This document shows, piece by piece, positions 10,527 through 32,000 of a stretch of DNA of 32,000 bases. The position numbers and the translations under genes were made by a program. A model generated the notes under the pieces. The model ran no database searches. It saw only the letters and a program-made list of their open reading frames with translations, and was not told where the DNA came from. The stretch's first letter is position 1; each line of letters opens with the position of its first letter. Source of the DNA: Geotalea uraniireducens Rf4. GTDB lineage: Bacteria; Desulfobacterota; Desulfuromonadia; Geobacterales; Geobacteraceae. The DNA lies in contig NC_009483.1 of NCBI RefSeq assembly GCF_000016745.1, forward strand, positions 3,360,001 through 3,392,000, read 5' to 3'.

Positions 10527-10930
10527 GTCATGCCTTGCTTTTAACATTTTGCTCACATATTGTAACGACTCAAGTCGTAAGCGCCTAACCGGCACCCCAC
10601 CACATAACACTTTCCACATTAAAGCGCATTCAGCGCAATAACGGAACCAATCCGTCATTTACAGGACATGGGCTGACTTTCCATCGCAAATTACGACAAA
10701 CCAAAAATCCGCGGTTGGACCATGGAGACATGGGTGCCGCATTTTTCAGTTGTGTGCTGTTGCCGGGGCGCCCCCACCTGTAATCCGCCGCTATCACAGA
10801 TATTCCGGCGATAACGCAGAGGGTGTGGAACGGAACGTGCAGATTAGAATATTGTAAACTAAGTTTGTTTAAGGGCCAACCAGAGACAAGCTGCAACAGC
10901 ATGTTTCGAGAGACAAGAAAGGAGACGGTA

Positions 10931-11515
10931 TTGCGAAGAACGATTTTCATGTTACTGGGGCTGTTCACCCTGCCGCTCCTTTTCGGATGCGGTTACAACA
11001 CGCTGAAGAGTAAAGAAGTGACGACATCGAAGGCTTGGAACGATCTGGGTTTCGCATGCCGGCAACGCCTTGAACTGGTTGGGAATTATCTGGACATAGT
11101 GCGGAAACACGCGGTCAATGAGAGTAAGGTCCTGCATGATGTTGAAACAGCCACACACGACGCTATCAGTGCCGGCTGCCCCATAACCCCTCCCGATACA
11201 TCGCAAAAACTAAATAGATTCCGCGACGTTCAGGCAGAACTTACCAAGACGCTGGCACGTCTTCAGGTCATCACCGGTAACTACCCTGAGCTAATAAACG
11301 ACTACAGTTACATTACCATCCAGAAAAGGCTTGAAGTCGTGGAAAGCCACATCAACGAAGCGATAACCAACTACAATTCTGCCAGTCATGACTTCAACAC
11401 ATGCAAGAGTACCTTCCCCAACTCGCTGACCAATGCCCTGCTGCTCCGCTATAACGATAAAGAACCTTTCAGGGCCTCTGAAAAAGTCATGCTGGTGGAA
11501 GGCAAAGATTCCTGA
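10931..11515 (+). CDS. LemA family lipoprotein
   Basis: The ORF track gives 10823..11515. I prefer TTG 10931, which has AAGGAGA 5 nt upstream and yields the lipoprotein signal (M)RRTIFMLLGLFTLPLLFGC. ATG 10901 is an alternative start. The body matches the LemA pattern (GYNTL...AWNDL...QRLELVGNYLDIV...YPELI...Y..IQ..LE..E..I..A...YN). Confidence 0.85.
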   Translation: MRRTIFMLLGLFTLPLLFGCGYNTLKSKEVTTSKAWNDLGFACRQRLELVGNYLDIVRKHAVNESKVLHDVETATHDAISAGCPITPPDTSQKLNRFRDVQAELTKTLARLQVITGNYPELINDYSYITIQKRLEVVESHINEAITNYNSASHDFNTCKSTFPNSLTNALLLRYNDKEPFRASEKVMLVEGKDS

Positions 11516-11540
11516 GAAGAGCGGTCTGACATCCATAGGT

Positions 11541-11580
11541 AAAAAAAGAGGGGCGGCTTCAAGCCGCCCCTCTTTTTTTA
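11541..11580. terminator. Bidirectional rho-independent terminator between convergent lemA and pyc
   Basis: aaaaaaa-gaggggcggc-ttcaa-gccgcccctc-ttttttt. An 11 bp GC-rich stem flanked by an A-run and a T-run. Confidence 0.9.
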
Positions 11581-14500
11581 CCCCAGAACCAGCAACAGGT
11601 CATCCTTCTCGACCTTGTCCCCTTCCTTGAACTTGACTTCAGCGATCTTGCCATCTTCTTTGACCTTGATGTTGGTCTCCATCTTCATTGCCTCGGTAAC
11701 CATCAGCACATCGCCGGCACACACTTCATCGCCGGCCTTGACGTTCACCTTCAATACCTTGCCCGGCATGGGGGCGCCGATATGCTGCGGATTGCCCTTG
11801 TCGGCCTTTTCCCGCACAGCCTCGCCGGATACTGCCGACTGGTCGCGCACCGTTACCTGGCGGGCATCGCCATTCAGTTCGAAGTAAATATGGCGGGTGC
11901 CGTCAGGGTGAACGCGGCCAATGGCGTTGAGTTTGATAATGAGTGTCTTGCCCGGTTGAATCTCAATGGATGTCTCCTGGCCCGGTTCAAGTCCGTAAAA
12001 GAAAATTGGTGTCGGAATGACCGAGGTATCCGAATACTCCTGGCGGTGCCGGTCGAATTCAGGAAAGACGTGCGGATAGAGGATGTAAGAGATAAGCCCC
12101 TTATCATCAACCGGATGCCCGACTTTAGCCTCGACCTTGAGCCGTTCTTCGTCGAAATCCACCGGCTCGAGCAGTTCTCCCGGACGGCAGCTGATCGGCT
12201 CCTCTCCCTTGAGAATGATGCGCTGCAATTCACGGGGAAAGCCCTGATAGGGCTGGCCGATCATCCCCTTGAACATCCCCGTTACCGACTCGGGGAAGCT
12301 AAGATCGTCCCCTTTGACGTACACATCGTCCACATCCATGTTGTTCTTCACCAGGAACATGGCCATGTCCCCCACCACCTTGGAAGACGGCGTCACCTTG
12401 ACGATATCGCCAAAGAGCAGGTTGACCCTGTGATACATCTCCTTGCACTCTTCCCAGCGGTCCAACAGGCCGAGACCGGCCACCTGCGGCTTATAGTTGG
12501 AGTACTGGCCGCCGGGAATCTCGTGGTGGTAAACTTCGGCCGTGCCGCTCTTAAGCCCCGACTCAAAGGGCGTGTAGTAGTCGCGCACCGTCTCCCAATA
12601 GTTGGCCAGCTTCTGCAGGCTCTCCTCGTTAAGACCGGTATCCCATTCGCTACCCTTCAGGGCAGCTACCAGGGCATTGAGGTTTGGCTGGGAAGTAAGG
12701 CCCGAGATGGACGAAAGCGCAGCATCGACGATATCCACTCCCGCCTGGCAGGCCATCAGAAGCATTGCGCCGCCGTTGCTGGAAGTATCGTGGGTGTGAA
12801 GGTGAATCGGGATGCCGATCTCAGCCTTCAAAGCCTTTATCAGCTTCGAAGCGGCAAAAGGCTTGAGGAGGCCGGCCATGTCCTTGATGGCAAGGATGTG
12901 GGCACCCATTGACTCCAGCTCCTTCGCCATGTTTACGTAGTACTCCAGCGGATACTTGTCGCGCTTGGGATCGGTAATATCCCCGGTGTAACAGATGGAG
13001 GCTTCGCAGATCTTCCCCTGTTTGCGCACGGCGTCCATCGCCACCCGCATCCCCCTGGTCCAGTTGAGGGAGTCGAAAACGCGGAAGATATCGATGCCTG
13101 ACTGGGCCGCTTCCTCCACAAATCGCTCGACCACGTTATCCGAGTAGTTGGTGTAGCCGACAGCATTGGAACCCCGGAGAAGCATCTGGAAAAGGACATT
13201 GGGGATCGCCTCGGACAGTTTGTGCAGCCTCTGCCAGGGGCATTCCTTGAGAAAGCGCATGGAGACGTCAAATGTGGCCCCGCCCCACATCTCCAGGGAA
13301 AAGAGATCGGAAGCAAGATAGGAGGTCGGTTCGGCAATCTTCAGCAGGTCATAGCTCCTGACCCGGGTAGCGAGCAGCGACTGGTGGGCGTCGCGCATGG
13401 TGGTGTCAGTGACGAGGAGCTTTTTTTGTTCAAGTATCCATTTGGAAAGGCCGTCCGCGCCCTTTTCCATGAAAATGTCGCGGGTTCCAGCTGGCCGCGG
13501 TTTCATGTAATCGATGTCCGGCACTTTGGCGTCAAGCAGATCGGAAGATTTGAGAGGCTTGTCAACCCCGGGCGAACCGTTGACGATTACATCGCCGATG
13601 AAATTGAGGACCTTGGTGGCCCGGTCCTTTTTCTCCTCAAACTTCAAGAGCTCAGGATGCTTGTCGATGAACGACGTGTCGCATTTGCCGTTGAGAAAGA
13701 CCGGATGGGTGATGACGTTTTCCAGGAAGGCAATATTGGTCTTCACGCCGCGGATACGAAATTCCTGGAGGGAGCGGTGCATGATGCGCGACGCCTCCTC
13801 GAAGGTCAGGCCCCAGGAACTCACCTTAACCAGGAGTGAGTCATAGTGAGGGGTGATCTGCGCACCGGTAAAGGCATTGCCGGCATCGAGCCGCACGCCG
13901 AATCCGGCCGATGAGCGATATGCCTTGAGGATGCCGAAATCCGGGGCGAAGTTGTTTGCCGGGTCTTCGGTAGTAATACGGCACTGGATGGCATGGCCCC
14001 ACATCTTGATGGCGTCCTGGTTCGGGATGTTGATTTCGGGATCAGAAAGCGGTTTCCCTTCCGCAACCAGTATCTGATCCTGCACCAGGTTGCGGCCGGT
14101 AATCATTTCGGTTACCGTATGTTCAACCTGGATACGCGGGTTCATCTCGATGAAATAGAAATTCCCCTCCTGATCAAGGAGAAATTCCACGGTACCGGCA
14201 TTGCGGTAGCCAACCTGACCGGCAATCTTGAGCGCTGCGGCACACAGCTCTTCGCGCATCTCCGGGGTGATGCAGAGCGATGGGGCAAACTCCACCACCT
14301 TCTGGTGGCGGCGCTGGATGGAACAATCGCGCTCGAAAAAGTGAACCAGGTTCCCGAAGCTGTCTCCCAGCACCTGCACCTCGATATGCTTCGGGTTCTC
14401 CAGGTAGCGTTCAAGAAAGACCGCCGCATTACCGAAGGCAGCCTTCGCTTCGCTGCGGGCACTGGCAATCCCCTCGACCAGCTCCTTGCGGTTGTTGGCA

Positions 14501-15024
14501 ACCCGCATCCCACGGCCGCCGCCGCCGGCTGCCGCCTTGATGATGATCGGATAGCCGTAGTTCTTGGCAAAGATAAGGGCCTCTTCCTCGTGCTCAATAG
14601 GGTCCTCAGTGCCGGGAACCACGGGAACTCCGGCAGCTACCGCCACTTTACGGGCAGCAACCTTATCCCCAAGCCGTCGCTGCATTTCCGCAGTCGGACC
14701 GATAAAGGCAATGCCGGCCGCCTCGCACTTCTCGGCAAATTCGGCATTCTCCGAAAGGAAGCCGTATCCGGGGTGAATGGCGTCCACATCCCTTTTCAGG
14801 GCCAGGGCAATGATCTCGTCTATGCCCAGATATGCATCGATCGGGCTCTTTCCCTTACCGATCAGGTACGCCTCATCCGCTTTGTAACGATGCAGCGACA
14901 GCTTATCTTCCTCGGAATAAATGGCCACCGTGCCTATGCCCAGTTCGGTACAAGCGCGAAAAATGCGAATCGCAATCTCGCCACGGTTTGCCGCCATAAT
15001 CTTTCTGAATTTCCGTTGTGCCAT
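11578..15024 (-). CDS. pyc: Pyruvate carboxylase (single-chain: biotin carboxylase + carboxyltransferase + BCCP)
   Basis: The ORF track gives 11578..15036. ATG 15024 (MAQRKFRKIMAANRGEIAIR) has GGAGG 7 nt upstream. ATP-grasp motifs, an HMGL-like carboxyltransferase region, and the biotinyl-lysine motif EAMKMET near the C-terminus. Confidence 0.96.
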   Translation of the reverse strand: MAQRKFRKIMAANRGEIAIRIFRACTELGIGTVAIYSEEDKLSLHRYKADEAYLIGKGKSPIDAYLGIDEIIALALKRDVDAIHPGYGFLSENAEFAEKCEAAGIAFIGPTAEMQRRLGDKVAARKVAVAAGVPVVPGTEDPIEHEEEALIFAKNYGYPIIIKAAAGGGGRGMRVANNRKELVEGIASARSEAKAAFGNAAVFLERYLENPKHIEVQVLGDSFGNLVHFFERDCSIQRRHQKVVEFAPSLCITPEMREELCAAALKIAGQVGYRNAGTVEFLLDQEGNFYFIEMNPRIQVEHTVTEMITGRNLVQDQILVAEGKPLSDPEINIPNQDAIKMWGHAIQCRITTEDPANNFAPDFGILKAYRSSAGFGVRLDAGNAFTGAQITPHYDSLLVKVSSWGLTFEEASRIMHRSLQEFRIRGVKTNIAFLENVITHPVFLNGKCDTSFIDKHPELLKFEEKKDRATKVLNFIGDVIVNGSPGVDKPLKSSDLLDAKVPDIDYMKPRPAGTRDIFMEKGADGLSKWILEQKKLLVTDTTMRDAHQSLLATRVRSYDLLKIAEPTSYLASDLFSLEMWGGATFDVSMRFLKECPWQRLHKLSEAIPNVLFQMLLRGSNAVGYTNYSDNVVERFVEEAAQSGIDIFRVFDSLNWTRGMRVAMDAVRKQGKICEASICYTGDITDPKRDKYPLEYYVNMAKELESMGAHILAIKDMAGLLKPFAASKLIKALKAEIGIPIHLHTHDTSSNGGAMLLMACQAGVDIVDAALSSISGLTSQPNLNALVAALKGSEWDTGLNEESLQKLANYWETVRDYYTPFESGLKSGTAEVYHHEIPGGQYSNYKPQVAGLGLLDRWEECKEMYHRVNLLFGDIVKVTPSSKVVGDMAMFLVKNNMDVDDVYVKGDDLSFPESVTGMFKGMIGQPYQGFPRELQRIILKGEEPISCRPGELLEPVDFDEERLKVEAKVGHPVDDKGLISYILYPHVFPEFDRHRQEYSDTSVIPTPIFFYGLEPGQETSIEIQPGKTLIIKLNAIGRVHPDGTRHIYFELNGDARQVTVRDQSAVSGEAVREKADKGNPQHIGAPMPGKVLKVNVKAGDEVCAGDVLMVTEAMKMETNIKVKEDGKIAEVKFKEGDKVEKDDLLLVLG

Positions 15025-15036
15025 CAAAGCCTCCAC

Positions 15037-15281
15037 AAACTGTTTTTTATGTAAAATAAAACATATACACTGATAGTAAAATTTAACACTACTAAAATTG
15101 TTTAGTTATTTTGAATAGTTAGATACTGTATCAGAATGACAATAAAACCAGAATAAAAAAACAAAGTCAACAGTAAACATCCGTTATATTATGAATAATT
15201 GCCAACAAAACAACATATGTAGGTTTACCATTCAATAATTTAATGCTATTATTTACAAAAATTTTTCAAAAGGAGATTTTG
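15037..15281. promoter_or_regulatory. Strongly AT-rich divergent intergenic (promoter) region between pyc and the PPIase gene
   Basis: About 245 nt, almost devoid of G+C runs, lying between two divergently transcribed genes in an otherwise GC-rich context. No individual promoter hexamers are assigned. Confidence 0.5.
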
Positions 15282-16307
15282 ATGATTTCGGCAAAGAAGA
15301 TATTTTCCTACTCGCTTGCAGCCCTTGTCCTTATTACCATCCAGACCTGGTCCGCCTTCGGTGATGAGCAGAAGGCGCCACAAACAGAGCAAAAGAGTGC
15401 TCAAACGACGGAAAAGAAAAGTGCCCCTACCGATCCCGTCGCCAAAGTAAACGACACGATCATCACCCGTTTGGACCTGGATCGTGCGGTGAAAGTACTG
15501 GTTTCCCAAAACAGACTTCCACAGCCGCTGCCCCCCGAATCATTGAAACAAGCTGAGGAAGCCGCCCTCGACCAGCTTATATCCGCAGAGCTCCTCTACC
15601 AGGCTGGCCAGAAAACCGAGATAAGGGATCTGGAGAAGCAGGTCGAAGAAAAGGTCAGCCAAAACAAGGCAAAGTTTCCTTCAGCAGATGAATTCGAAAA
15701 AGCCCTCAAATCCGTGGAAATGACGGAAAAAGACCTGAAAGAGTTCACCCGCAAGGACGTAGTCATCAGCAACTTTATTGAAAAAAATATTGCCGAAAAA
15801 ACCAAGGTTACAGAGGCCGACGCGAAAAAATTCTACGATGATAATCCCGACAAATTCAAGCAGGAGCCGAGCGTAAAGGCCAGCCATATCTTGTGCGGCG
15901 TTGAGGCTAGCGCCACCGCCGAAGAAAAGAAAAAAGCCAAGGAAAAGGCCGAGGCTTTGCTGAAAAAGATCAAAGCCGGTGAAGATTTTGCAACCCTGGC
16001 AAAATCCGAATCAACCTGCCCGAGCAGCAAGCAGGGGGGAGATCTGGGTTTCTTCAGTAAAGGGCAGATGGTTGCCCCTTTTGAAAAGGCAGCCTTTGCC
16101 CTCAAGCCCGGCGAGGTCAGTGACGTGGTGGAAACCCAGTTCGGCTACCACATCATCAAACTCACCGAGAAGAAAGAAGGCGGAACCATCAAGTTCGACG
16201 AGGTTAAGGAAAAGATCGAGAACTACCTGAAGAATCTGAAGATTCAGAAGGCCATAGGCGAATGCCTGGTTGAGCTGAAAGGCAAGGCCAAGATCGAAAA
16301 ATTATAG
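15282..16307 (+). CDS. Secreted parvulin-type peptidyl-prolyl cis-trans isomerase (SurA/PrsA-like)
   Basis: The ORF track gives 15243..16307. ATG 15282 has AAGGAG 6 nt upstream and yields the signal peptide MISAKKIFSYSLAALVLITIQTWSAFG. Parvulin motifs: ASHIL...GGDLGFFSKGQMVAPFEKAAF...GYHIIK. Confidence 0.9.
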   Translation: MISAKKIFSYSLAALVLITIQTWSAFGDEQKAPQTEQKSAQTTEKKSAPTDPVAKVNDTIITRLDLDRAVKVLVSQNRLPQPLPPESLKQAEEAALDQLISAELLYQAGQKTEIRDLEKQVEEKVSQNKAKFPSADEFEKALKSVEMTEKDLKEFTRKDVVISNFIEKNIAEKTKVTEADAKKFYDDNPDKFKQEPSVKASHILCGVEASATAEEKKKAKEKAEALLKKIKAGEDFATLAKSESTCPSSKQGGDLGFFSKGQMVAPFEKAAFALKPGEVSDVVETQFGYHIIKLTEKKEGGTIKFDEVKEKIENYLKNLKIQKAIGECLVELKGKAKIEKL

Positions 16308-22614: not shown

Positions 22615-22709
22615 AGCTTTTGCTATTATACTGAACCACGCTCGTCGCCAATAACAACTCCTCCCTGCACACTCTGCACATTGACCTCAAAGCCGCCACA
22701 ACTGCACAC

Positions 22710-22878
22710 CTAGGAGCCTGTCGGACTTAGGAATGAATCTACTGCGAGAACGGAAAATCGGTCCATATTCCCGGAAATTTTCGACAAATAGGTCCACTAT
22801 TCGCTCTCAAATTTCCGATAATCTGTCCTCGATTTGCCATTCTCTCGTTACGATTCCCTAAGTCCGACAGGCTCCTAG
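22710..22878. mobile_element. 169 bp palindromic MITE-like element with perfect 22 bp terminal inverted repeats
   Basis: ctaggagcctgtcggacttagg (22710-22731) is the exact reverse complement of cctaagtccgacaggctcctag (22857-22878). The interior is also an imperfect palindrome (gaatctactgcgagaacggaaaatcgg...cggaaattt versus aaatttccg...cgatttgccattctctcgttacgattc). It has no coding capacity. Confidence 0.7.
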
Positions 22879-23079
22879 ATATCAATTTCATCACTTGTCT
22901 CCTTCCTCATCATAAGCGCAGGTGGTTTTCCACCCCGAAACGTACTTTCGGAAGAGGTTTAAGTTATTGACAACAAAGACATAAAGTGCAATAACTGCGC
23001 GTAATCCCTGTTGATTCCTGATTTTTTAGTCCCTCTCCGCAATCCCGAATTTTGATCAAAGCCCGGGAGGCAACCTAGT

Positions 23080-24228
23080 TTGAGCAAATATCAGTATTAC
23101 GAGTTTCTCGCCATTGACCGCCCGCTCTCGCAAAAGGAGATGGAGCACATGAGGGCACTATCCTCCAGGGGACACATCACTCCGGTCAGCTTTTCCAACG
23201 AATATCATTGGGGCAACTTCAAGGGTGATCCCAATGGTTTGATGCGGCGTTTCTATGATGCACATGTCTATCTTGCCAACTGGGGAACGGCAGTTTTCAT
23301 GCTCCGTCTTCCCATGACTGCTCTTGACCGCAAGGTTTTAAAGGCGTTCACGGTTAACGGGGTGTTCGAGGTTGAAGCCTCTCCGACGCACTGGATTTGT
23401 TCATGGAACCTGGATGACTCGGAGGATTACGACCGGGTCGGCCCGGAAGATGGCTCCGGCTGGATGGCGCGGCTCGCGCCGCTGCGCGAGGAGCTTCTGC
23501 GCGGCGATCTGCGCAGTCTTTACATAGGCTGGCTGGCAGCGGTTTCCATGGGCGCGGATGAGGACGAGTTGGAACCGCCGATGCCTGACGGTCTCGCCCC
23601 TTTTACCGCGGCGCAGGAAGCCCTTGCCGAGTTCCTTGAGGTGGATATCGATCTGCTGGCAGGTGCGGGCATGGAGCGCCCCAACGCCCGGAGCATGGCT
23701 TGTGAGCACGAGATCGACCCCTGGCTGGACGCGTTGCCGATGGCGGAGATGCGTCTCTTGGTGCGAAAGCTCTTGACCGGCCAGGAAGTTGAGGCCGAGC
23801 GCGAGGTGAAAAGCCGGTTTGCCGCTTGGCGCAAAAGCACCGGCGATGCACCTGCCGCTCTCCCGCGAAGGACAGTGGCGGAGCTGTGGCAATTGGCAGA
23901 AAAGGCCGAGGAGGCCCGTCTTCTGCAAGAGAAAAAGCGGCGTGAGCAGGCGGAGGCCAAGCGGCTCAAGGAGCGGGAAGCGAATCTCGCTAGGCTGGCC
24001 GAAAATTTCCCCAAGGCTTGGCAGGCTGTCAACCAGCGGGTGCAGGTAGGGTCGGGAAAGGCGTATGATGAAGCCTGTCAGGCTCTGGTCGATCTGGCCG
24101 AGGCGTATGCCAAACACGCCAGCAAGCAAGCCTTCGATGCCGAGTTGCGCCGGTTCATGGCCGGCCATGGGCAACGGAAGAGTCTGATGCAGCGGCTGGT
24201 GAAGGCGAAGCTAATGCGGAGTGCTTGA
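23080..24228 (+). CDS. Hypothetical protein: conserved-looking N-terminal domain plus a charged coiled-coil C-terminal half
   Basis: 382 aa. TTG start with GGGAGG 10 nt upstream. N-terminus MSKYQYYEFLAIDRPLSQKEM...; C-terminal Lys/Glu/Arg-rich helix (EKAEEARLLQEKKRREQAEAKRLKEREANLARL). The long antisense ORFs here are typical high-GC artefacts. I cannot assign a family. Confidence 0.7.
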   Translation: MSKYQYYEFLAIDRPLSQKEMEHMRALSSRGHITPVSFSNEYHWGNFKGDPNGLMRRFYDAHVYLANWGTAVFMLRLPMTALDRKVLKAFTVNGVFEVEASPTHWICSWNLDDSEDYDRVGPEDGSGWMARLAPLREELLRGDLRSLYIGWLAAVSMGADEDELEPPMPDGLAPFTAAQEALAEFLEVDIDLLAGAGMERPNARSMACEHEIDPWLDALPMAEMRLLVRKLLTGQEVEAEREVKSRFAAWRKSTGDAPAALPRRTVAELWQLAEKAEEARLLQEKKRREQAEAKRLKEREANLARLAENFPKAWQAVNQRVQVGSGKAYDEACQALVDLAEAYAKHASKQAFDAELRRFMAGHGQRKSLMQRLVKAKLMRSA

Positions 24229-24512
24229 AACTCCGGTTCGGAGGCCGCGCAAGCGGCTGAATCTCGCCTGAAGCAGGAACCCTCTGTTCATACATGCAGT
24301 GGAAACAGTCAATACCGTCGGGGAGCACGTGAAGTGAAAAGGAGCCCAAGCAACGTACAGATACGGCATCAGCGCATACCTACGAAAACAAGTTTATCCA
24401 GCCTGATTCGGATGAGCGGTTCGCCTTTATCGCAGGGTATACCGACGGTGGCTTCCCGTACGGAACCACATGGGATGAATTGCCGGGAGAGACTTATGCC
24501 GAGGAGGCGACG

Positions 24513-24923
24513 ATGACGGATAGAAAAGCCTCGAACGCCACATTCCGCGAGTGGACTCCGGATTTCGACAAATGGCCGAGTTCATGGATGGGTGTCAAGG
24601 AAGATCTCGAATACGGCAGGAAGATCCTCCCCTATTTCGAACATTTCCTCCAGGAATTGTATGATGAAGGTTTCTCCAGAAAGACCTTTGTCCAGTATCG
24701 GGATAATCTGTGGCTTCTGGGCGGAACGATCATCACGGGGGTCTCGAATTACGAGGAACACCACATCGATCCGTTTGAGAAACTGTATGATTCTGTAATA
24801 TCTGACGGCATCCTCCCTGATCATTATGATGATATGAGTGAAGCCGAGTTGTATGCTTTTGCCAGAATGTGCCGCAGGTTAGAGAAGTTTCTTGATCAGC
24901 ATTATCGGGCTCTTTTCTTATAA
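24513..24923 (+). CDS. Hypothetical protein; the central region resembles a phage-integrase SAM-like (core-binding) N-terminal domain
   Basis: ATG 24513 with GAGGAGG 6 nt upstream (the ORF track starts at TTG 24480). YFEHFLQELYDEGFSRKTFVQYRDNLWLLGG recalls the F..FL..L...G.S..T...Y...L pattern. The reading frame stays open and protein-like upstream as far as a TGA at 24330 (see findings). Confidence 0.6.
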   Translation: MTDRKASNATFREWTPDFDKWPSSWMGVKEDLEYGRKILPYFEHFLQELYDEGFSRKTFVQYRDNLWLLGGTIITGVSNYEEHHIDPFEKLYDSVISDGILPDHYDDMSEAELYAFARMCRRLEKFLDQHYRALFL

Positions 24924-24937
24924 AACTGGAGAGGCAA

Positions 24938-25792
24938 ATGAAGATGAAAAAGAGTGGGAAAAACGCCCACCCCGCAGCCAGGGCCGTACTGGAAGATCTC
25001 GGCAACAAGGAGTGGCGTTTCGCTGAGATACCGTATGAAACGGAGATGAAGTTTAACGATCTGCTCGACGCGCGGGATTTTGGCAGCGTCACTCCTGCGG
25101 AGATGGAGCGGCAACTCAGGGAGCTGCTGCATGAGACGCCCAACTTCATCGATGTGTATCATCATCTGGCGATGCTTCTCGACCAGCGGGGGAAGAGACA
25201 TGAGGCCCAACTGCTGTGGCAGCAGGCGGTGAACATCGGCATGCAGTGTTTCATCGAAAAGTTCAGCGCCGCCGGCAACAAGCTGGAATGGGGCTGGCTC
25301 GAAAACCGCCCCTTTCTGCGAGCCTATCATTCACTTGGACTTCAACACATGGAGAGCGGTAATACCGAGATGGCCCTCTCCATCTTCAGGACGATCATGT
25401 CCCTGAATTCGGGCGACAACCAGGGTGTCCGTGCGCTCGTGGTCGATTGCTGCCTGAAACTGAAAATGTACAAGGACGCCCTGGCGGTATGCGAGGATTC
25501 GCTCGGCGACCACATGGCCGAAACGGTGTACGGCCGCGTTCTGGCTCTTGTCGCCCTCAAGCGGATGACCCAGGCGGAAAAGGCGCTCCGGCAGGCGGTT
25601 ACTGTTTTGCCGTTGGTGGCGGGAGAGCTTGTGAAAACCCGCCATACGCGACCGAGGAATATGCGCGAAGGGCACTATACCGTCGGCGGAGCCGATCAGG
25701 CTTGGTACTACTGGCAGGAGGCGGGAGAGTATTGGGTGCAGGTGCTGGGGGCGATTGAGTTTGTCAGGGAGCGGTTGAAGGGGCGGGGGTAG
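24938..25792 (+). CDS. Hypothetical TPR-like helical repeat protein
   Basis: 284 aa, with GGAGAGG SD 5 nt upstream. Helical-repeat signature (PFLRAYHSLGLQHMESGNTEMALSIFRTIMSLNSGDNQGVRALVVDCCLKLKMYKDALAVCE...). Confidence 0.7.
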   Translation: MKMKKSGKNAHPAARAVLEDLGNKEWRFAEIPYETEMKFNDLLDARDFGSVTPAEMERQLRELLHETPNFIDVYHHLAMLLDQRGKRHEAQLLWQQAVNIGMQCFIEKFSAAGNKLEWGWLENRPFLRAYHSLGLQHMESGNTEMALSIFRTIMSLNSGDNQGVRALVVDCCLKLKMYKDALAVCEDSLGDHMAETVYGRVLALVALKRMTQAEKALRQAVTVLPLVAGELVKTRHTRPRNMREGHYTVGGADQAWYYWQEAGEYWVQVLGAIEFVRERLKGRG

Positions 25793-25897
25793 AGGGCTTC
25801 TGTTGAATAGAAGACGTCTGGAGGGGGCGCAATAAATTGTCCGAGAAGGAGTTTGATTTACTAAATTCAAGATGAAGGGGCTTGAGGAGAGTAGCGT

Positions 25898-27511
25898 ATG
25901 GAGGAAATTGATAAACTCAGCAGCGAGAATAAATCATTATTTCCAGGGTTAGCCATATTCGAAAACGATTACGCACATGCCCTCATACATTTGGCATGGT
26001 ATCGCGAAGATAAGAAACGATTTCTTGTCTTTGGAATGGTTGAATTGTTCCCCGCTGAGTTCCCTCCCCCGGAGCCGTCGGGAAAAATGTCTCTGTCCAC
26101 AATAAATTTCGGAAGACAGCATGATTTGAATATCCAGCGAGTTGTCATATCTTCAAAAGATGCTTTGTCTTGGTATCTGGAGTGCCGCAACACATCTATT
26201 ACTATTCCTGCAGCGTTTGGAGAGAAGTTAGCAGGGAAAGCCCTTCAAACTAGTCCTTTAGCAGAAGAGCCATCGTGGTCACATCTGATAACGAGCAATG
26301 ATCTTCCGTTTCATTGTTGGAGTGTTGTCCGCGCTCATCATCTTATTCAAGAAAATGTCCCTGAAGAAATCAGTAAGCTATTTACCAGCACCGAAATTAT
26401 CTGTTGGCTGAAAGACAAACTTTTCTTCGATTTACAGAATTATCAGGAATGGAAAGGCTCTCTTCATCTTATTGCCCCCAATCCCGTTTTCCGTTTATTT
26501 CACCAGAGGCTTGGTATAACTGAAAACGGTTTCGAATCGAGCGATTGTCACATAGAACCGCGAGCAGGTCGTGACTTAGCTGCGCTTGATTTGTATCTGT
26601 CAGAACGCCATCCTACCGGGATCGTATCGTTTTGTAGAAAGGAAATAACGGAACCTTATTTTTCACTCCCCCATGTCGAGCATACAGAAAAAGTGGAATA
26701 TCTGATCCATTCGAAACAATATGGGGTATTGGACTGGCATGAACCGGTTTCTTTCCTGCGAAGCATCCAATTTCAATCAAATCTCATTACCGGCAAAAAG
26801 ATAGTCAATGTCCCCGATAATCGGGGAGAGAGCTATGAGGTGCCACAACTTTCGGCGGCGTCATCGGGGATTGTGGGTGAGCGGGAACCGGCATCTCCAA
26901 TTACCTCACATCTTCGTAAACATGAAGCGATGCGGAAGCGCCGTAAGGAATCAGAACGTCTGGGTCAGAAATGGTTTCACGGGAACCAAGAAGAGGCCAC
27001 GATTTTTGTTAGAGAGCTTATCAAGAATGCGAAAAGAAGGGTATTTATTGTTGATCCATACTTTGCCACGGTGGAGCTTTTTAGCTTTGCCTTTGCAACC
27101 AGCCGGTCCGAGATAGAAGTTGTTATATTGACGGCAGCCAAAGACAACCTGATGAATAAGGACAGGGCTGATTCAAACCGTGATGCAGGCGAGGTTCTCC
27201 TTTCGCAAGTTCAGGCATATAGGCAGAATGGAAAGATTAAAGTCTTTGTCATGACGGGGAGTCCGCCGGCAGTGCATGACCGTTTTCTGGTTGTGGACAA
27301 CGATGTCTGGCTTTCGGGAAATTCGCTGCATACCATTGGGAAAAGGGCTGGAACGATGATCAAGCTCCCATGTCCTGATGAGGTGGCAAAGAACTTGGAG
27401 AATATCCTGACTAGTGATCGAGTCAAGCCTCTTGAACAGTGGGTACTAGATCGCCGTTCGAACAAAGGCATTGAACTCGAGAGTTCAGAACGCAAGGACT
27501 CTTCTCAATGA
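25898..27511 (+). CDS. Hypothetical 537 aa protein: unknown N-terminal region of about 350 aa plus a C-terminal PLD-superfamily-like domain with Arg in the Lys position (H-x-R-x4-D-x6-G)
   Basis: GGAGAG SD 8 nt upstream. C-terminus: RRVFIVDPYFATVEL...EVVILTAAKD...VHDRFLVVDNDVWLSGNSLHTIGKRA. The spacing of H, R, D and G equals the canonical HxK(x)4D(x)6G of PLD/Nuc enzymes. The stop overlaps the next start (ATGA at 27508-27511). Confidence 0.75.
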   Translation: MEEIDKLSSENKSLFPGLAIFENDYAHALIHLAWYREDKKRFLVFGMVELFPAEFPPPEPSGKMSLSTINFGRQHDLNIQRVVISSKDALSWYLECRNTSITIPAAFGEKLAGKALQTSPLAEEPSWSHLITSNDLPFHCWSVVRAHHLIQENVPEEISKLFTSTEIICWLKDKLFFDLQNYQEWKGSLHLIAPNPVFRLFHQRLGITENGFESSDCHIEPRAGRDLAALDLYLSERHPTGIVSFCRKEITEPYFSLPHVEHTEKVEYLIHSKQYGVLDWHEPVSFLRSIQFQSNLITGKKIVNVPDNRGESYEVPQLSAASSGIVGEREPASPITSHLRKHEAMRKRRKESERLGQKWFHGNQEEATIFVRELIKNAKRRVFIVDPYFATVELFSFAFATSRSEIEVVILTAAKDNLMNKDRADSNRDAGEVLLSQVQAYRQNGKIKVFVMTGSPPAVHDRFLVVDNDVWLSGNSLHTIGKRAGTMIKLPCPDEVAKNLENILTSDRVKPLEQWVLDRRSNKGIELESSERKDSSQ

Positions 27512-27939
27512 AACTACCGCAGAACAGGCTAACTGATATCGGCTCGATACCTTCACCTTCAGCGAAGGTTATCGAGCGGCCTGAGTTAATTTGGCCATCA
27601 ATCCCCGATAGCATTGATGTCGAAAATGTCAAGGAACACGACCGGTTTACGGCCCCTGATCATTGGATCATCAAAACGCGCCGAGAATTTTCAGATGCTT
27701 GTAAAAGGGAAGAATCCCCTGGGCTTGGTTGTGGCTTGTTTTGGGAAAAACTCCAGGAATCTGAACAGATATTGATACTCGACAAACATTTCGACAAACA
27801 AGCCATGATCACGCTACGAGAAAGGCTTCGTGGTGGTAGGATGAAGATTCAGGACTTGCGTATCATCACTTCAGATGATGGTGCTCGCGACCTGTTTTCA
27901 GATATTGCCAGATTAAATACCGAAGGTGATTGGTTGTAA
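27508..27939 (+). CDS. Hypothetical 143 aa protein: N-terminal part of a small paralog of the upstream PLD-like domain (apparently frame-disrupted)
   Basis: Contains EHDRFTAPDHWII (first HDRF motif). Its ILILDKHFDK...LRIITSDDG aligns by eye with RVFIVDPYFAT...VVILTAAKD of the 537 aa protein. It ends at TAA 27937-27939, just before the expected second motif. Confidence 0.6.
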   Translation: MKLPQNRLTDIGSIPSPSAKVIERPELIWPSIPDSIDVENVKEHDRFTAPDHWIIKTRREFSDACKREESPGLGCGLFWEKLQESEQILILDKHFDKQAMITLRERLRGGRMKIQDLRIITSDDGARDLFSDIARLNTEGDWL

Positions 27940-28150
27940 GTCATATAAACGGCATGACAAACAATTTGACATATTTCATGATCGTTTTGCCGTAAATAAT
28001 GATGAGCTATGGCATTTTGGCGGCACCGTAGGCGGCATCCAAACTGACCTTACAGCTGTAAGCCGTGGATGGAATGCTGTATTTCGGAATTTTATTGATC
28101 TCTTTGATCGAGTCTGGAACGCTCTTTATATGCCTGGGGGACGGAAATGA
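27926..28150 (+). CDS. Hypothetical 74 aa fragment: C-terminal part of the same paralog, in the +1 frame
   Basis: Carries FHDRFAVNNDELWHFGGTVGG, the counterpart of VHDRFLVVDNDVWLSGNSLHT. It has only a GTG start with no spaced SD. Its frame is open back to 27917. Its stop overlaps the next start (ATGA at 28147-28150). Confidence 0.5.
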   Translation: MIGCKSYKRHDKQFDIFHDRFAVNNDELWHFGGTVGGIQTDLTAVSRGWNAVFRNFIDLFDRVWNALYMPGGRK

Positions 28151-30186
28151 AGGATGCTCGCCTAGTGGCGAATTATCAATATGCTCAGAAGCTGGATGCC
28201 AATATTGTTGATGGCAAGACTGTGATCCAAGAGTCTTGGTTTGAACAGGCTGTTGCGGCCATCGTCAAGACCCCTTTACTAATGACCTTCGAGAGCAGAC
28301 TTGAGTCGTGTCAAGACTTTGAGAAATTTGTTGAACAAATTGAGAAGTCTGACAGAAATGAATTGCCGGGCCAAGCCGTTGCAATCATAGAACAATTGCC
28401 AACTGGTTTTCCAGATGAGCTAGACGCAGTATCGAGTGGAGACCATGAGGCATCAAACCATGCAGCGTGGGTGTGGGGTAGCGCGCTTGCTCGTATTTGT
28501 GCCGGTTCAAATTCCATTAAAGAATTACTGGAAGCTGGCTGGCGCCTTGCAGGGCATGAAGTTGCGGCAGAGGCATTTCTAGAAGGAGTCACTTCCGCGC
28601 TTGTCCGAGAAAATGCAGATTGCGTACATGCAGCTTTGAATGACTTGGTTGACAACATTGCCGAACAACCGGAGCTGTGCGTTTATTCGAGCGAGCGGGA
28701 GCGCTTTTGTCAAGCGGTAGAGGATTGGAAAGAGGAAGCAGATCTTTCTAAGGTCTGGTCTCTGAATGCTTTCGAATACTTCCCCGTTTACTGTGAGTCG
28801 ATAGGTGTGCTTGAAGCAGTTCGAAGAAGTGATCCTTCTCAATATTTGAAGTTGTTGGAGCTAACTGCTCTACCGCCAGCGATAGAAAATGCCTTCAGAA
28901 GACTCGATATCTTTTACGATTTTGATGTGATTTTACAGCTACTGTCTGTTGCGCCCTCAATACTTGAACCCGATGGCAACAACCGGGTTTGGAATCGAAA
29001 ACTGACCGCTCCGATACTTCTAAATAAAGGATTGGAGCATATAAGAGATCTTGCTGATGTCATATTTCGTACAAACGATGAAGAGCGGGACAAGGCAGAA
29101 TCGATACGTGATCGGGAAGCTCATTCGCTTTTATGCCGTCTGACGGAGGCGCTGCTCGGGCGACAAGATGGGACATTTCTGGCAGTTCACTGGATGTGCC
29201 ATTTGATCGGAACGAACGGTCCAAAACCATGGAGCAATACCGACCGCTGGACACCGATTCCAAGCACCATCGAAGCAGTGGCATCAGGTTTACATTCGAA
29301 GGGAATACAACTTGAAGACATTGTTAACCTCTTTCCAAAGTATGCCATTCCGAAAGGTGACGATCTAATAAAGCTACATCAAAGTGGAATCGGCGATCTT
29401 GACCGACATGCGAAACCTTCTGGGTTGGATATATTGTTGGCCTATCTTTGGATCATCAATCAAGCCGATACCGAGATTTCGTTGAAAGACGAAATGACGT
29501 TGAATTTTTTTGAAACCTTGCTTGTTCGGCAGGATGGTGGTTTGTACATTGCTATCCCTGAAGCCTGCCCGACTGTCCGTGAATATTATCCTGCCCTACT
29601 CTATGCCACACATGACCATCCGGTTGAAACTTGGAGCAAGAGTTGGGCATTGCTGTCTGAGCAGCGCCGACTATTCCGGCACCGCTGGTCTGACGATACA
29701 GTACCACGCTCCGAGGACCCTAGCTTCTGTCTGGCAAATATTGGTCTTGCCACAGTTGACTGGCTGATTTCTCCGGAGGTCGCCAACTTTGACCAAGCAC
29801 TCCCCCTGTGGAGAACTATTTTTGACGCCGTCTTCAACGTTGTAATTACTCCACCATCCTTCAACAATGATCACTGGCGTAACCTTATCGCAAAACTCTT
29901 CAGCAGGTTGCCGCTTGTATCAACACCTTCAGATCGCTCCTCCATTGTTGTTGAATATTTACTTCGTTTAGGTGGTGATGACGAGCTGTTCATCTGGTGT
30001 TTGGCGAATGCCTGCCAAAATGGTGCGTTGATCAGTGATGTTGCTCTGACAATTAAACATTCAGGTGCAGACTTGAGAAACCGCATGGATGCCTATATCA
30101 AATGGGAGGGTCGAGACAGTAACCGAAGAAAGAATGACAAGGTGATGGAGGTATGCCAGAACCTGCTTCAGCAATTACAGCCATAA
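28147..30186 (+). CDS. Hypothetical 679 aa protein, apparently all-alpha, with no recognisable catalytic motif
   Basis: Long ORF with no competing ORFs of comparable length. Translationally coupled to the upstream gene. I found no Walker A, HKD, HNH, DEAD or TM segments by eye. Confidence 0.75.
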   Translation: MKDARLVANYQYAQKLDANIVDGKTVIQESWFEQAVAAIVKTPLLMTFESRLESCQDFEKFVEQIEKSDRNELPGQAVAIIEQLPTGFPDELDAVSSGDHEASNHAAWVWGSALARICAGSNSIKELLEAGWRLAGHEVAAEAFLEGVTSALVRENADCVHAALNDLVDNIAEQPELCVYSSERERFCQAVEDWKEEADLSKVWSLNAFEYFPVYCESIGVLEAVRRSDPSQYLKLLELTALPPAIENAFRRLDIFYDFDVILQLLSVAPSILEPDGNNRVWNRKLTAPILLNKGLEHIRDLADVIFRTNDEERDKAESIRDREAHSLLCRLTEALLGRQDGTFLAVHWMCHLIGTNGPKPWSNTDRWTPIPSTIEAVASGLHSKGIQLEDIVNLFPKYAIPKGDDLIKLHQSGIGDLDRHAKPSGLDILLAYLWIINQADTEISLKDEMTLNFFETLLVRQDGGLYIAIPEACPTVREYYPALLYATHDHPVETWSKSWALLSEQRRLFRHRWSDDTVPRSEDPSFCLANIGLATVDWLISPEVANFDQALPLWRTIFDAVFNVVITPPSFNNDHWRNLIAKLFSRLPLVSTPSDRSSIVVEYLLRLGGDDELFIWCLANACQNGALISDVALTIKHSGADLRNRMDAYIKWEGRDSNRRKNDKVMEVCQNLLQQLQP

Positions 30187-30251
30187 ACGCAAGAAAATTT
30201 ATTACTCTCCATGCCCATAAAAACACTTGCATAGGAAGCGAGAAACATCGC

Positions 30252-30884
30252 ATGAATAAAAAACTCACCATCATGGTCTCCTCTTCGGTCTACGGCATCG
30301 AGGAACTGCTGGACCGGATTTATACATTGCTGACCGCCTTCGGTTTCGAGGTCTGGATGTCGCACAAGGGGACGGTCCCGGTGTTCTCGAACCGTTCCGC
30401 CTTTGACAACTGCCTTGCGGCCGTGGAGAAATGCGACCTCTTCCTCGGGCTGATCACGCCTTATTACGGCAGCGGGAAGGATGAGGACGGTATCTCCATC
30501 ACCCATTTCGAGCTGCGCAGGGCCATCGAACTCAAGAAACCTCGCTGGCTTCTGGCCCATGACCACGTGGTGTTTGCCCGTACGTTGTTGAACAACCTGG
30601 GCCATGAAGGAAAAGAAAAACGCGGGAGATTGAAACTGAAGAAGAACAACGTCATTGACAACCTGCGCGTAATCGATATGTACGAAGAAGCGATCCTTTC
30701 GGAGAAACTCTTACGCGACAGACATGGCAACTGGGTTCAAAAATTCAGCACCGATGACGACGCGGCGCTGTTTGCCACGGCGCAGTTTTCCCGCTATCAG
30801 GAAGTGGAGGCGTTCGTGCAAGAGAACTTCAATGATAAAGATCATATCTCCCTGTCGCTCAAGGAACGTGGAGGCCGCCCATGA
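30252..30884 (+). CDS. DUF4062 domain protein
   Basis: The ORF track gives 30153..30884. I prefer ATG 30252 (MNKKLTIMVSSSVYGIEELLDRIYTLLTAFGFEVWMSH...CDLFLGLITPYYGSGKD..GISITHFELRRAIELKKPRWLL). This is the DUF4062 pattern: a beta-strand directly at the N-terminus, then S.VY.LEE.R, an acidic/Cys residue before the second hydrophobic strand, then YG...G.S.TH.E...A. Confidence 0.7.
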   Translation: MNKKLTIMVSSSVYGIEELLDRIYTLLTAFGFEVWMSHKGTVPVFSNRSAFDNCLAAVEKCDLFLGLITPYYGSGKDEDGISITHFELRRAIELKKPRWLLAHDHVVFARTLLNNLGHEGKEKRGRLKLKKNNVIDNLRVIDMYEEAILSEKLLRDRHGNWVQKFSTDDDAALFATAQFSRYQEVEAFVQENFNDKDHISLSLKERGGRP

Positions 30885-32000
30885 AGCCGGAAAAGCTAAG
30901 GGAACTTCTCCTTCTTGGCGAAAGCCAGCATGTGGAATTCAAGTCGCAGTGCCGGAATCCGGATGTTGTCGGGACTGCGGTGTGCGGGTTTCTCAATACC
31001 GGCGGCGGCTCCGTTGTCTGCGGCGTTGATAGCAAGGGAAACATCCGGGACATTGATAAGCCAAATGAAGTCGTGATCATGCTGGAACAGGCACTGCAAG
31101 GCGTATCTCCCAAGGCGCTGGTTTCCATCTCTGTTCATGAGGTTGAAGGAAAGCCTTTGATCGTTGCCGAAGCGCCAGCCGGTCAGGATATTCCCTATGC
31201 GTTCAACAATGTGATCTACATCCGTGAGGGGGCGCATACCAAAGCGGCCGACGTGGAAACCATCCGGGACATGGTGCTTCGCAAATCGGTGGAACCGGAA
31301 CGATGGGAAAGACGGTTTTCCACCGCCGAGCCTGAAAGCGATGTCGACCTGCAGGAAATCAGTAGAACCGTTACCGCGATCCTGAAAATACGTCGTACTT
31401 TTTTCAGGGATACGGCAAATCCCCTCATGGTTCTGGAGGACCTTTCCGTGGCCAAGTATGGCCGTCTTACCCAGGGGGGGGATGTCCTGTTCTGCAAGAA
31501 TCCGGCTGCCCGCTTTCCCCAGGTTCGGGTTCGGGCCGCATGTTTCACCCAGGACAAGGCCAGTGATACCTTCCGGGATATGAAGTCGTTCGAGGGGCCG
31601 CTCGTATCCGTGCTCGAACAGCTCTTCGATTTCATCATTCGCAACACCGCGACAGTATCTCGGTTCAGAAAGACTATTCTAGAGCGTCAGGATGAGTCCC
31701 TCTACCCTTCGGAAGCAATCCGGGAAGCCTTGGTCAATGCGTTCGCCCATCGCGACTATGCCGACTTTTCCGGCGGCATTACAGTACATATCTATCCCGA
31801 CCGGCTGGAGATATGGAACTCAGGCAACCTGCCCGAGGGCATTACGCTGGACACGCTGGCAAAAGGGCATCTATCGGTTCTCAGGAACCCGGACATCGCA
31901 CATGTGCTTTATCTGCGCGGTCTTATGGAAAAACTCGGCCGCGGCAGCATCCTTATTCTTCAGGCATGCGCAGAGCGGGGGCTTCCCAAGCCCACATGGC
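30881..32000 (+). CDS. Schlafen/AlbA_2 domain plus HATPase_c_4 (RecG-C-terminal-like) putative DNA-binding protein; the 3' end runs off the window
   Basis: Absent from the ORF track because it is open to the window edge. My translation from ATG 30881 (overlapping the DUF4062 stop as ATGA) reads MKPEKLRELLLLGESQHVEFKSQCRNPDVVGTAVCGFLNTGGGSVVCGVD...PLIVAEAPAGQDIPYAF...IYIREGAHT (AlbA_2 pattern), then ...PSEAIREALVNAFAHRDYADFSGGITVHIYPDRLEIWNSGNLPEGITLD...RNPDIAHVLYLRGLMEKLGRG (HATPase_c_4 pattern). Confidence 0.8.
   Translation, partial: MKPEKLRELLLLGESQHVEFKSQCRNPDVVGTAVCGFLNTGGGSVVCGVDSKGNIRDIDKPNEVVIMLEQALQGVSPKALVSISVHEVEGKPLIVAEAPAGQDIPYAFNNVIYIREGAHTKAADVETIRDMVLRKSVEPERWERRFSTAEPESDVDLQEISRTVTAILKIRRTFFRDTANPLMVLEDLSVAKYGRLTQGGDVLFCKNPAARFPQVRVRAACFTQDKASDTFRDMKSFEGPLVSVLEQLFDFIIRNTATVSRFRKTILERQDESLYPSEAIREALVNAFAHRDYADFSGGITVHIYPDRLEIWNSGNLPEGITLDTLAKGHLSVLRNPDIAHVLYLRGLMEKLGRGSILILQACAERGLPKPTW

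Follow-up and report, generated by a model that had tools for sequence, protein, structure and literature searches.

A PLD-fold and alpha-solenoid gene pair in Geotalea uraniireducens Rf4, a multi-gene relative of two anti-phage proteins

A chain of three co-directional genes on the forward strand of Geotalea uraniireducens Rf4 (contig NC_009483.1) raises the question whether it encodes a defence module of its own, as had been proposed in an earlier note made from the DNA letters alone. The stretch analysed here, referred to as the window, comprises 32,000 nucleotides (positions 3,360,001 to 3,392,000 of the contig), and all coordinates without other attribution are counted from its first letter. 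The genes are designated P1 (537 amino acids, 25898..27511, +), P2 (the small middle gene, 27508..28150, +) and P3 (679 amino acids, 28147..30186, +). The locus is an uncharacterised multi-gene relative of two validated anti-phage proteins. It is most likely a horizontally acquired conflict cassette directed against phages, and we lean towards reading the module as a defence or conflict cassette made up of a PLD-type (phospholipase D) effector and a solenoid regulator. The earlier interpretation was right in kind, as it named a variant-PLD effector and a conserved conflict operon, but it overstated the novelty of the locus and mis-described P2.

The genes are chained by ATGA start/stop overlaps at 27508-27511 and 28147-28150, as had been noticed before, and the low G+C content pointed out at the same time is equally real, with 0.462 in 25898-30186 compared to 0.553 in 1-22614, 0.549 in 22615-25897 and 0.541 in 30187-32000. 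The locus is a horizontally acquired cassette.

The P1-P3 pair and its accessory gene

Whether the three genes belong together was judged from their relatives in other genomes. When one genome of each GTDB species was scanned for the motif, 321 relatives emerged, some of them RhuM-like, of which the best 80 were examined together with plasmid and metagenome loci; 66 loci with a full-length P1 and sufficient downstream sequence were informative. P3 lies directly downstream of P1 on the same strand in 63 of the 66 according to hidden Markov model searches, and the other three carry a divergent P3 (hhalign probability 97.5%), so that P1 and P3 are adjacent in 66/66. Between the two genes P2 is intact in 29 loci, split or partial in seven and absent in 30. 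Complete three-gene operons are those of Paraburkholderia fungorum CP157346.1 (L003) and Klebsiella variicola pML9ba2 (L005), for example, and Pseudomonas mediterranea (L018) is an example of the natural two-gene form. The predicted co-occurrence is therefore confirmed for the P1-P3 pair but not for a three-gene unit, about half of the loci being devoid of P2 and the window itself containing P2 only as a pseudogene. Because P1 and P3 are always paired whereas P2 is absent in about half of the loci, P1 plus P3 is regarded as the core and P2 as accessory.

The loci span Alpha-, Beta- and Gammaproteobacteria, Desulfobacterota, Myxococcota, Acidobacteriota and Nitrospirota, and they were also found in Gemmatimonadota, Spirochaetes, Bacteroidales and Firmicutes; full-length P1 was seen in 65 or more species-level genomes, which represent over ten phyla. 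A split P2 accompanies a standard P3 in five loci (the window, Azospirillum Az39, Magnetospirillum fulvum, L026 and L059), and L065 and L067 combine a partial P2 match with a P3 of the divergent type. P2 is apparently prone to repeated loss. The split or truncated copies are located at 8533-9215 of L006 (Azospirillum argentinense Az39 plasmid p3) and at 11634-12004 of L010 (Magnetospirillum fulvum); P1 and P3 are intact in L006, L010, L026 and L059 all the same.

P3 matches no Pfam, NCBIfam or PADLOC model, in agreement with the earlier remark that it contains no recognised family motif. Its AlphaFold2 (AF2) model, built on an alignment of 71 sequences (predicted local distance difference test score, pLDDT, 92.3; predicted template modelling score, pTM, 0.90), is all helical save for a beta hairpin at residues 273-282, and the structural matches are weak ones to ARM, HEAT and karyopherin proteins with template modelling scores up to 0.3. 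According to this model P3 is an alpha-solenoid of ARM/HEAT-like type without an enzyme fold. When 1.84 billion representatives were scanned in full with HMMER, the family came to 228 clusters at 50% identity, nearly all of them stand-alone proteins of about 650 amino acids; a word-indexed protein search found the same six proteins from an 11-sequence alignment as from the single sequence. In a minority of homologs (P0222, P0252, P0269, P0270 and L063 8812-12396) P3 is fused C-terminally to a STAND NTPase, with the AAA_16/nSTAND1 P-loop NTPase located at approximately residues 780-1010. STAND NTPases are a hallmark of the sensor and switch proteins of immune systems. The statement that the module has no ATPase is thus true for this locus; P3 of the window and most P3 homologs are without an NTPase, while in some lineages one is fused.

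P2 is, as had been supposed, a paralog of the PLD-fold domain of P1 (hhalign probability 98.5%, E 3.6e-15), and a control comparison of P2 with the N-terminal region of P1 gave a probability of 0.07%. In the 28 homologs on which conservation was scored, H160, R162, F163, A164, D167, W171 and G174 are present in 28/28 and D161 in 27/28; in the window the corresponding HDRFAV..D..W.FGG motif is located in the downstream fragment of the gene (27977..28018, +). An upstream Asp, D86, is invariant alongside this C-terminal H-D-R-F-A..D..W..G set. The first of the two HDRF motifs that had been attributed to the middle gene (EHDRF, 27637..27648, +) did not hold up: in the aligned homologs Q, L or Y stands in place of its His, and its Asp alone is conserved (27/28). 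It is a lineage-specific coincidence. A two-lobed HKD architecture was therefore rejected for P2, and because only the C-terminal HDRF set and D86 are invariant P2 is described as a single-lobe paralog. A further conserved motif, P-x-L-x-W-P ... D ... P, occupies residues 22-44 of the L001 copy (27580-27650 of the window); P22 is found in 28/28 and W26 in 25/28 homologs. This motif is not part of the PLD-like lobe; it could serve as a docking peptide.

Intact P2 homologs elsewhere consist of 214-227 amino acids. In the window the gene is divided into two open reading frames (ORFs) in different frames, one of 143 amino acids (27508-27939) and one of 74 amino acids (27926-28150). The frame defect suspected earlier is real, but it is not a mere frameshift: DNA alignment with L088 and L001 revealed that the window is devoid of the 11 bp ATGTGACTCTG between 27920 and 27921 as compared to L088, which encodes an intact P2 of 217 amino acids, and the deletion shifts the P2 frame. 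L088 is a close relative, with 97% identity of the P1 protein and 99.1% identity of the P1 DNA. As a gap of 11 bp is unlikely to be a base-calling slip, P2 is treated here as a pseudogene.

The PLD-fold domain of P1 and its HDR-type site

The suggestion that the module has no named relative fails for P1, which is not an orphan and belongs to a curated family. It matches the NCBIfam model NF040700 (VPA1262_N_dom, 'VPA1262 family N-terminal domain-containing protein') with 297.1 bits (E 2.1e-88, cutoff 80) over residues 77-505 against profile positions 3-477 of 478, and NCBI gives the same name to its close homologs. More than 120 stand-alone homologs of 512-560 amino acids were found by protein search. 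The related statement that residues 1-350 show no recognisable domain is correct with respect to Pfam, NCBIfam and PADLOC domain matches, but the whole-family NCBIfam model does match P1.

The AF2 model of P1 on an alignment of 71 homologs (pLDDT 92.7, pTM 0.82) starts with a beta-rich region (approximately residues 20-330), which a long linker helix connects to an alpha/beta domain at the C-terminus (approximately residues 355-525; 26960..27472, +). For the N-terminal region structure searches delivered only weak Ig/FN3-like or GH2-like beta-sandwich similarities and no convincing fold match, and sequence searches of P1 and P3 against the PDB gave only chance-level matches. The PLD fold assumed earlier for the C-terminal domain is supported by Foldseek matches to NucT, Nuc, SauUSI, Zucchini, PssA and PLD1/2 (E 1e-6 to 3e-4, probability 1.00); against the PDB the values were 5e-6 for NucT, 1e-4 for Nuc, 2e-5 for PssA and 3e-5 for SauUSI, and PLD proteins of poxviruses and giant viruses are also among the structural matches. 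Pfam PLDc_2 is borderline on the whole protein (27.0 bits, cutoff 27), reaches 30.1 bits on the domain alone and matches 11 of 17 related domain sequences (best 2e-10).

Both motifs named in the earlier note, VHDRFLVVDNDVWLSGNS and VFIVDPYF, are present in P1. The latter contains D386-P-Y-F (27053..27064, +), whose acidic residue stands straight after strand 2 of the PLD domain (residues 381-385 of the model); the other contains H460-D-R-F-L-V-V-D467-..-W471-..-G474-N-S476-L (27275..27328, +), a motif of the HxK(x)4D(x)6G type with Arg for Lys, in which H460-D461-R462 lead into a strand at 462-466. Among the 71 homologs D386, Y388, H460, D461, R462, F463, L464, D467, W471, G474, S476 and G481 are invariant, and because of this invariance the motif is far beyond chance. 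The signature HxK(x)4D(x)6G(S)xN is not matched at Lys, this position being always Arg (R462) in the 71 sequences, while H460, D467, G474 and S476 show the canonical spacing. The predicted place of this Arg at the HKD Lys position is borne out by the domain profile, which aligns HDRFLVIDD..G.SL on HFKGFIIDD..GASLN of E. coli PssA (phosphatidylserine synthase), the motif residues of P1 aligning on HFKGFIIDDSVLYSGASLN of that protein. The set H, D, R, D, G and S is invariant in P1 and in the C-terminal domains of RhuM type, and likewise in P2 except for the HDR Asp (27/28).

The variant site as such is not new. A paper on the Menshen system from 2025 describes, for the MIT_C domain of MITD1, the C-termini of BrxL and the effector NsnC, a site in which strand 2 is followed by an acidic residue and strand 5 is preceded by HDR (PMC12065111), and D386 and H460-R462 of the P1 model fit this site definition of MIT_C type; the novelty once assumed for the HDR variant is therefore not retained. 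Catalysis in the MIT_C-type HDR domains of MITD1, BrxL and NsnC is putative. The partner domains differ from those of P1, being MIT in MITD1, the AAA+/Lon-like part in BrxL, and NsnC with its PB-PLD1 domain in Menshen. A profile of P1 and RhuM domains places DPY on DPY and IHDR on IHDR of MITD1 (PDB 4a5z/2ymb), a weak match with E 0.59-0.97, and Pfam MIT_C matched none of the 17 domain sequences at E up to 1. The profile match hints that the domain of eukaryotic MITD1 and the HDR effector domains of prokaryotes share an origin.

The same comparisons bear on the question whether the domain is an enzyme at all. The HDR PLD-like domain might only bind and not catalyse, its ligand being DNA, as with TrmBL2, or a membrane or protein, as with MITD1 and FAM83; P1-P3 would then sequester or scaffold instead of cleaving. 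The top Foldseek matches of the domain are indeed TrmBL2 and FAM83/BJ-TSA-9, the profile match to MITD1 has both DPY and IHDR, Pfam SACK1 (FAM83) weakly matches 3 of the 17 domain sequences (best E 0.011), and the canonical Lys is missing in every one of the 71 P1 sequences. On the other hand, the residues His, Asp, Arg, Asp, Gly and Ser show no variation in P1 and RhuM-type domains and are present in at least 27/28 of P2, the conserved residues fall exactly on the catalytic positions of PssA, as is typical of active sites, Arg is able to supply the same positive charge as Lys, and the authors of PMC12065111 read the HDR site as catalytic. We consider a pure binding module rather unlikely.

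Among enzymes with this fold, the single-HKD nucleases (Nuc, NucT, BfiI, the nuclease domain of SauUSI and Zucchini) resemble P1 in fold, lobe size and H-x-(K/R)-x4-D-x6-G spacing. As established for the Nuc-type family, the single lobe of P1 would require dimerisation for an active site. Unlike these nucleases P1 contains the invariant Arg for Lys, its identity to them is only 10-18%, and its activity is putative. By analogy the domain of P1 would be a single PLD lobe with a putative composite two-lobe site and putative phosphodiesterase activity. Of the earlier description as a variant-PLD nuclease effector the PLD fold holds, whereas nuclease is a supposition, the fold being common to lipid enzymes and non-catalytic proteins.

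P1 could also be a phospholipid-directed PLD whose activation damages the membrane in the manner of abortive infection rather than nucleic acid. Matches to phosphatidylserine synthase, to bacterial and human PLD and to poxvirus envelope lipases equal those to nucleases, and the related domain of MITD1 binds membranes (Hadders et al. 2012, as cited in PMC12065111). Pfam and the AF2 models gave no sign of a transmembrane or lipid-binding element in any of the three proteins. Moreover, the single-lobe PLD proteins of P1-like size that have been characterised in prokaryotic conflict systems are nucleases (Nuc, NucT, BfiI, SauUSI), and Nuc, NucT and SauUSI are among the Foldseek matches. A lipid substrate is regarded as quite improbable.

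Relation to known anti-phage systems

One named relative is the VPA1262 family, which was renamed Juno and reported as an anti-phage protein in a 2026 preprint that offers no mechanism (bioRxiv 10.64898/2026.08.01.741415). P1 fits the VPA1262 N-terminal domain model over residues 77-505 (297 bits), its PLD domain is colinear with positions 385-504 of the full-length VPA1262 profile (E 3.1e-8), and both occur in mobile islands rich in defence genes. Juno, in contrast, is one protein with a profile of about 1026 positions, whereas here a separate P1 of 537 amino acids is always followed by a solenoid P3 of about 650 amino acids and often by the small paralog P2. No P1-P3-type fusion was found among the best 150 relatives of P3, and tblastn searches of plasmids with P1, the P1 C-terminal domain and a divergent Klebsiella P1 delivered only N-terminal-domain or RhuM proteins and no full-length VPA1262. 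P3 as a homolog of the VPA1262 C-terminus was dropped as a candidate, with 0/71 model matches and no fusion in the best 150, the two having been compared via the profile model only. By the profile models through which it was set against Juno, the operon is at most a candidate 'split Juno'. An NCBI-annotated VPA1262 N-terminal-domain protein is also encoded at 169326-170147 of the Bacillus wiedmannii plasmid NZ_CP036072.1 (H76) and extends this family in Bacillota beyond the Selenomonadales and Lachnospiraceae loci.

The second tested relative emerged from the PADLOC check for known systems, which had been suggested in the expectation that nothing would be called. It gave a mixed result: PDC-S05 models match the P1 domain at about 1e-13 over residues 359-502, and there was no PADLOC match for P3. 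One PDC-S05 gene was reported to protect E. coli against T7, T5 and T4 and to reduce the plating of T7 and T5 about 1000-fold (cold-seep study, bioRxiv 10.1101/2024.09.26.614923). A preprint on component modularity names neither PLD nor RhuM. According to tblastn and locus scans, RhuM-family proteins of about 300 amino acids from Bacteroidales and other groups contain the same domain C-terminally. The C-terminal domains of P1 and of RhuM/PDC-S05 proteins are homologous and share the invariant residues A..A..D.Y and IHDRFL(I/V)IDD..G.S..LG. RhuM differs in being a single protein of about 300 amino acids with Pfam Virulence_RhuM on its N-terminal part (1e-23 to 1e-25); P1 is without a Virulence_RhuM match and possesses instead a beta-rich region of 350 amino acids and an obligate solenoid partner.

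In its overall arrangement the module also resembles the STAND/Avs-type systems of sensor plus effector, in that a large repeat or solenoid protein is paired with a nuclease-like effector and that P3 carries an AAA_16/nSTAND1 NTPase as a fusion in some homologs. It differs from them in that P3 of the window and most P3 homologs have no NTPase.

Genomic context, proposed function and state of this copy

The frequent occurrence of defence genes beside P1-P3, predicted from the window, was found in other genomes too, with type II and IIG restriction-modification (RM), SIR2, DRT1, GajB, SoFic, IetS and MADS genes as neighbours. PADLOC matches in 110 nearest-neighbour ORFs from about 30 loci comprise RM II, IIG, DrmMI/PglX-type methylases, mad2, mad8, SoFic, IetS, Drt1a and GajB; neighbours in single loci include a type II RM pair, integrases, plasmid recombinases and insertion sequence (IS) elements, SIR2, a type IIG RM enzyme and a superfamily 1 (SF1) helicase. 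Clustering of all flanking ORFs revealed no further recurrent neighbour gene. The large ATPases encoded upstream in several loci were rejected as an additional conserved partner: they are unrelated to one another (an SMC-like ATPase, an SF1 helicase, a type IIG RM enzyme), and the clustering was negative. IMG/VR viral contigs delivered no relative with the motif patterns used, which is neutral with respect to a defence role.

Some neighbours are restricted to few loci. A homologous protein of about 1700 amino acids stands beside P3 in four loci from Acetobacteraceae and Devosia, immediately downstream of P3 on the same strand in L058 (7759-12855), L060 and L066 (9145-14370) and on the opposite strand in L042. 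The copy of L058, which was the one scanned, has a weak AAA_16 P-loop match, and the protein may be a lineage-specific fourth component. In the two-gene locus of Methylorubrum extorquens CM4 plasmid pCMU01 (L007) a protein of 260 amino acids without a Pfam match (10647-11426) overlaps the end of P3 and is followed on the opposite strand by a SIR2-family protein of 1319 amino acids (11530-15486).

In the window P3 is adjoined downstream by a DUF4062 gene (30252..30884, +; Pfam DUF4062 2.5e-16) and a gene with SLFN_AlbA_2 and HATPase_c_4 domains (30881..32000, +; Pfam 1.9e-17 and 1e-16) which extends past the window end, so that the DUF4062 and Schlafen-type neighbours reported before are confirmed. 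The DUF4062 ORF opens at 30153 and would from there overlap P3 by 34 nt; M34 at 30252 is its likely start. The PADLOC models gave no match for either protein, and the two genes do not recur beside P1-P3 in the other loci examined; they are thus regarded as context outside the conserved module. Upstream of about 22.6 kb the window contains housekeeping genes (pyruvate carboxylase, PtsP-like, SurA, ferritin, NfeD/SPFH and a sigma-54 regulator). Three ORFs with a G+C content of about 0.55 occupy 23080-25792, between this regulator and P1, two of them (382 and 147 amino acids) without family match and one encoding a tetratricopeptide repeat protein of 284 amino acids; the ORF of 147 amino acids has a weak PDC-S02 match (E 0.018). 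These three ORFs may belong to the same island as P1-P3. A tRNA integration site was not found, with zero tRNAs in the window, and promoter and terminator consensus scans of the window gave sites no more frequent than in shuffles.

Mobility by itself would also suit another mobile-element function, namely toxin-antitoxin-like addiction with P1 as toxin and P3/P2 as antidote, or an inter-bacterial toxin with its immunity protein. The operon is found on plasmids and beside integrases, recombinases and IS elements, its distribution is patchy, its G+C content is low and its accessory gene P2 decays recurrently, all of which suits such a role. Nevertheless, the flanking-ORF surveys revealed no recurring secretion marker and no type VI secretion system, Rhs or contact-dependent inhibition (CDI) genes nearby, P3 is far larger than a typical antitoxin or immunity protein and sometimes fused to a STAND NTPase, and the related single proteins that were tested protect against phage. 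A role outside immunity is held to be very improbable.

For a cassette acting in defence the following mechanism is proposed. P1 would be the effector and carry one HDR-type PLD phosphodiesterase lobe, with Asp after strand 2 and His-Asp-Arg before strand 5, on the beta-rich N-terminal region; P3 would bind P1 and act as sensor or regulator; and P2, where present (about half of the operons), would supply a second HDR lobe. Single-lobe PLD enzymes assemble one active site from two lobes. As two lobes are needed, P1 would probably pair with a second copy of itself, or with P2 in those operons that contain it. When a phage infects, P3 would set free or bring together the active dimer, which would cleave phosphodiester bonds, most likely of DNA or RNA, and thereby stop phage replication. 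Dimer formation by P1, suggested by analogy to the single-lobe enzymes, is proposed tentatively; a nucleic-acid substrate of P1 appears possible though doubtful, and the assignment of P3 as the sensor is offered with low confidence.

Several points weigh against the reading as an anti-phage effector module. At the level of the family, the non-catalytic TrmBL2 and FAM83 (1e-6 to 2e-5) are among the best Foldseek matches of the P1 domain, MITD1, a membrane binder, has the DPY and HDR motifs as well, and catalysis by the Arg-for-Lys site is putative. P1 scores only 31.9 bits against the full-length VPA1262 model NF040699 (cutoff 325), with only residues 359-468 aligned, and none of 71 P3 homologs matches this model at E up to 1; because P1 is below the family cutoff and P3 is without similarity, the N-terminal module that is shared would be the sole basis for expecting the Juno phenotype here. 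Phage tests concern relatives, namely Juno and one PDC-S05 gene, and a defence role of P1-P3 would follow by analogy. Many nearest neighbours are housekeeping genes, and defence-island enrichment is a qualitative observation from the loci surveyed.

At the level of this copy, P2 is broken in this genome, and P1 of the window (25898-27508) differs from L088 (181-1791) by 15 nucleotides, 14 nonsynonymous and one synonymous, an estimate of selection based on small numbers and on a short read-assembly contig. One change, P128S in P1 of the window, affects a position occupied by Pro in 69/70 homologs. The 14:1 pattern does not suggest strong purifying selection; it would be consistent with relaxed constraint (decay) or with diversifying selection, and the P1 changes would fit loss of function in this genome. 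The locus here either still works, as a two-component version, or is a system in decay.

Taken further, P1-P3 with P2 as optional second lobe might constitute a widespread unnamed anti-phage system in which an ATPase-free solenoid sensor gates a genuinely catalytic HDR PLD phosphodiesterase, an idea we regard as speculative but worth stating. The effector domain family, the HDR motif and the link to defence are already known from the literature and curated databases, and this copy is partly degraded; new here is the multi-gene form, with a separate P1, an obligate P3 solenoid and an optional P2. If the defence role is true, it would be a compact ATPase-free two- or three-gene addition to the anti-phage repertoire. 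The P1-P3 pair offers a natural 'split' relative for dissecting Juno, and a tractable model for catalysis by an HDR (Lys-to-Arg) PLD site, a question that was raised for BrxL and human MITD1. If the HDR system proved catalytic, the HDR domains of RhuM, BrxL and eukaryotic MITD1 would be enzymes derived from a prokaryotic immune effector.

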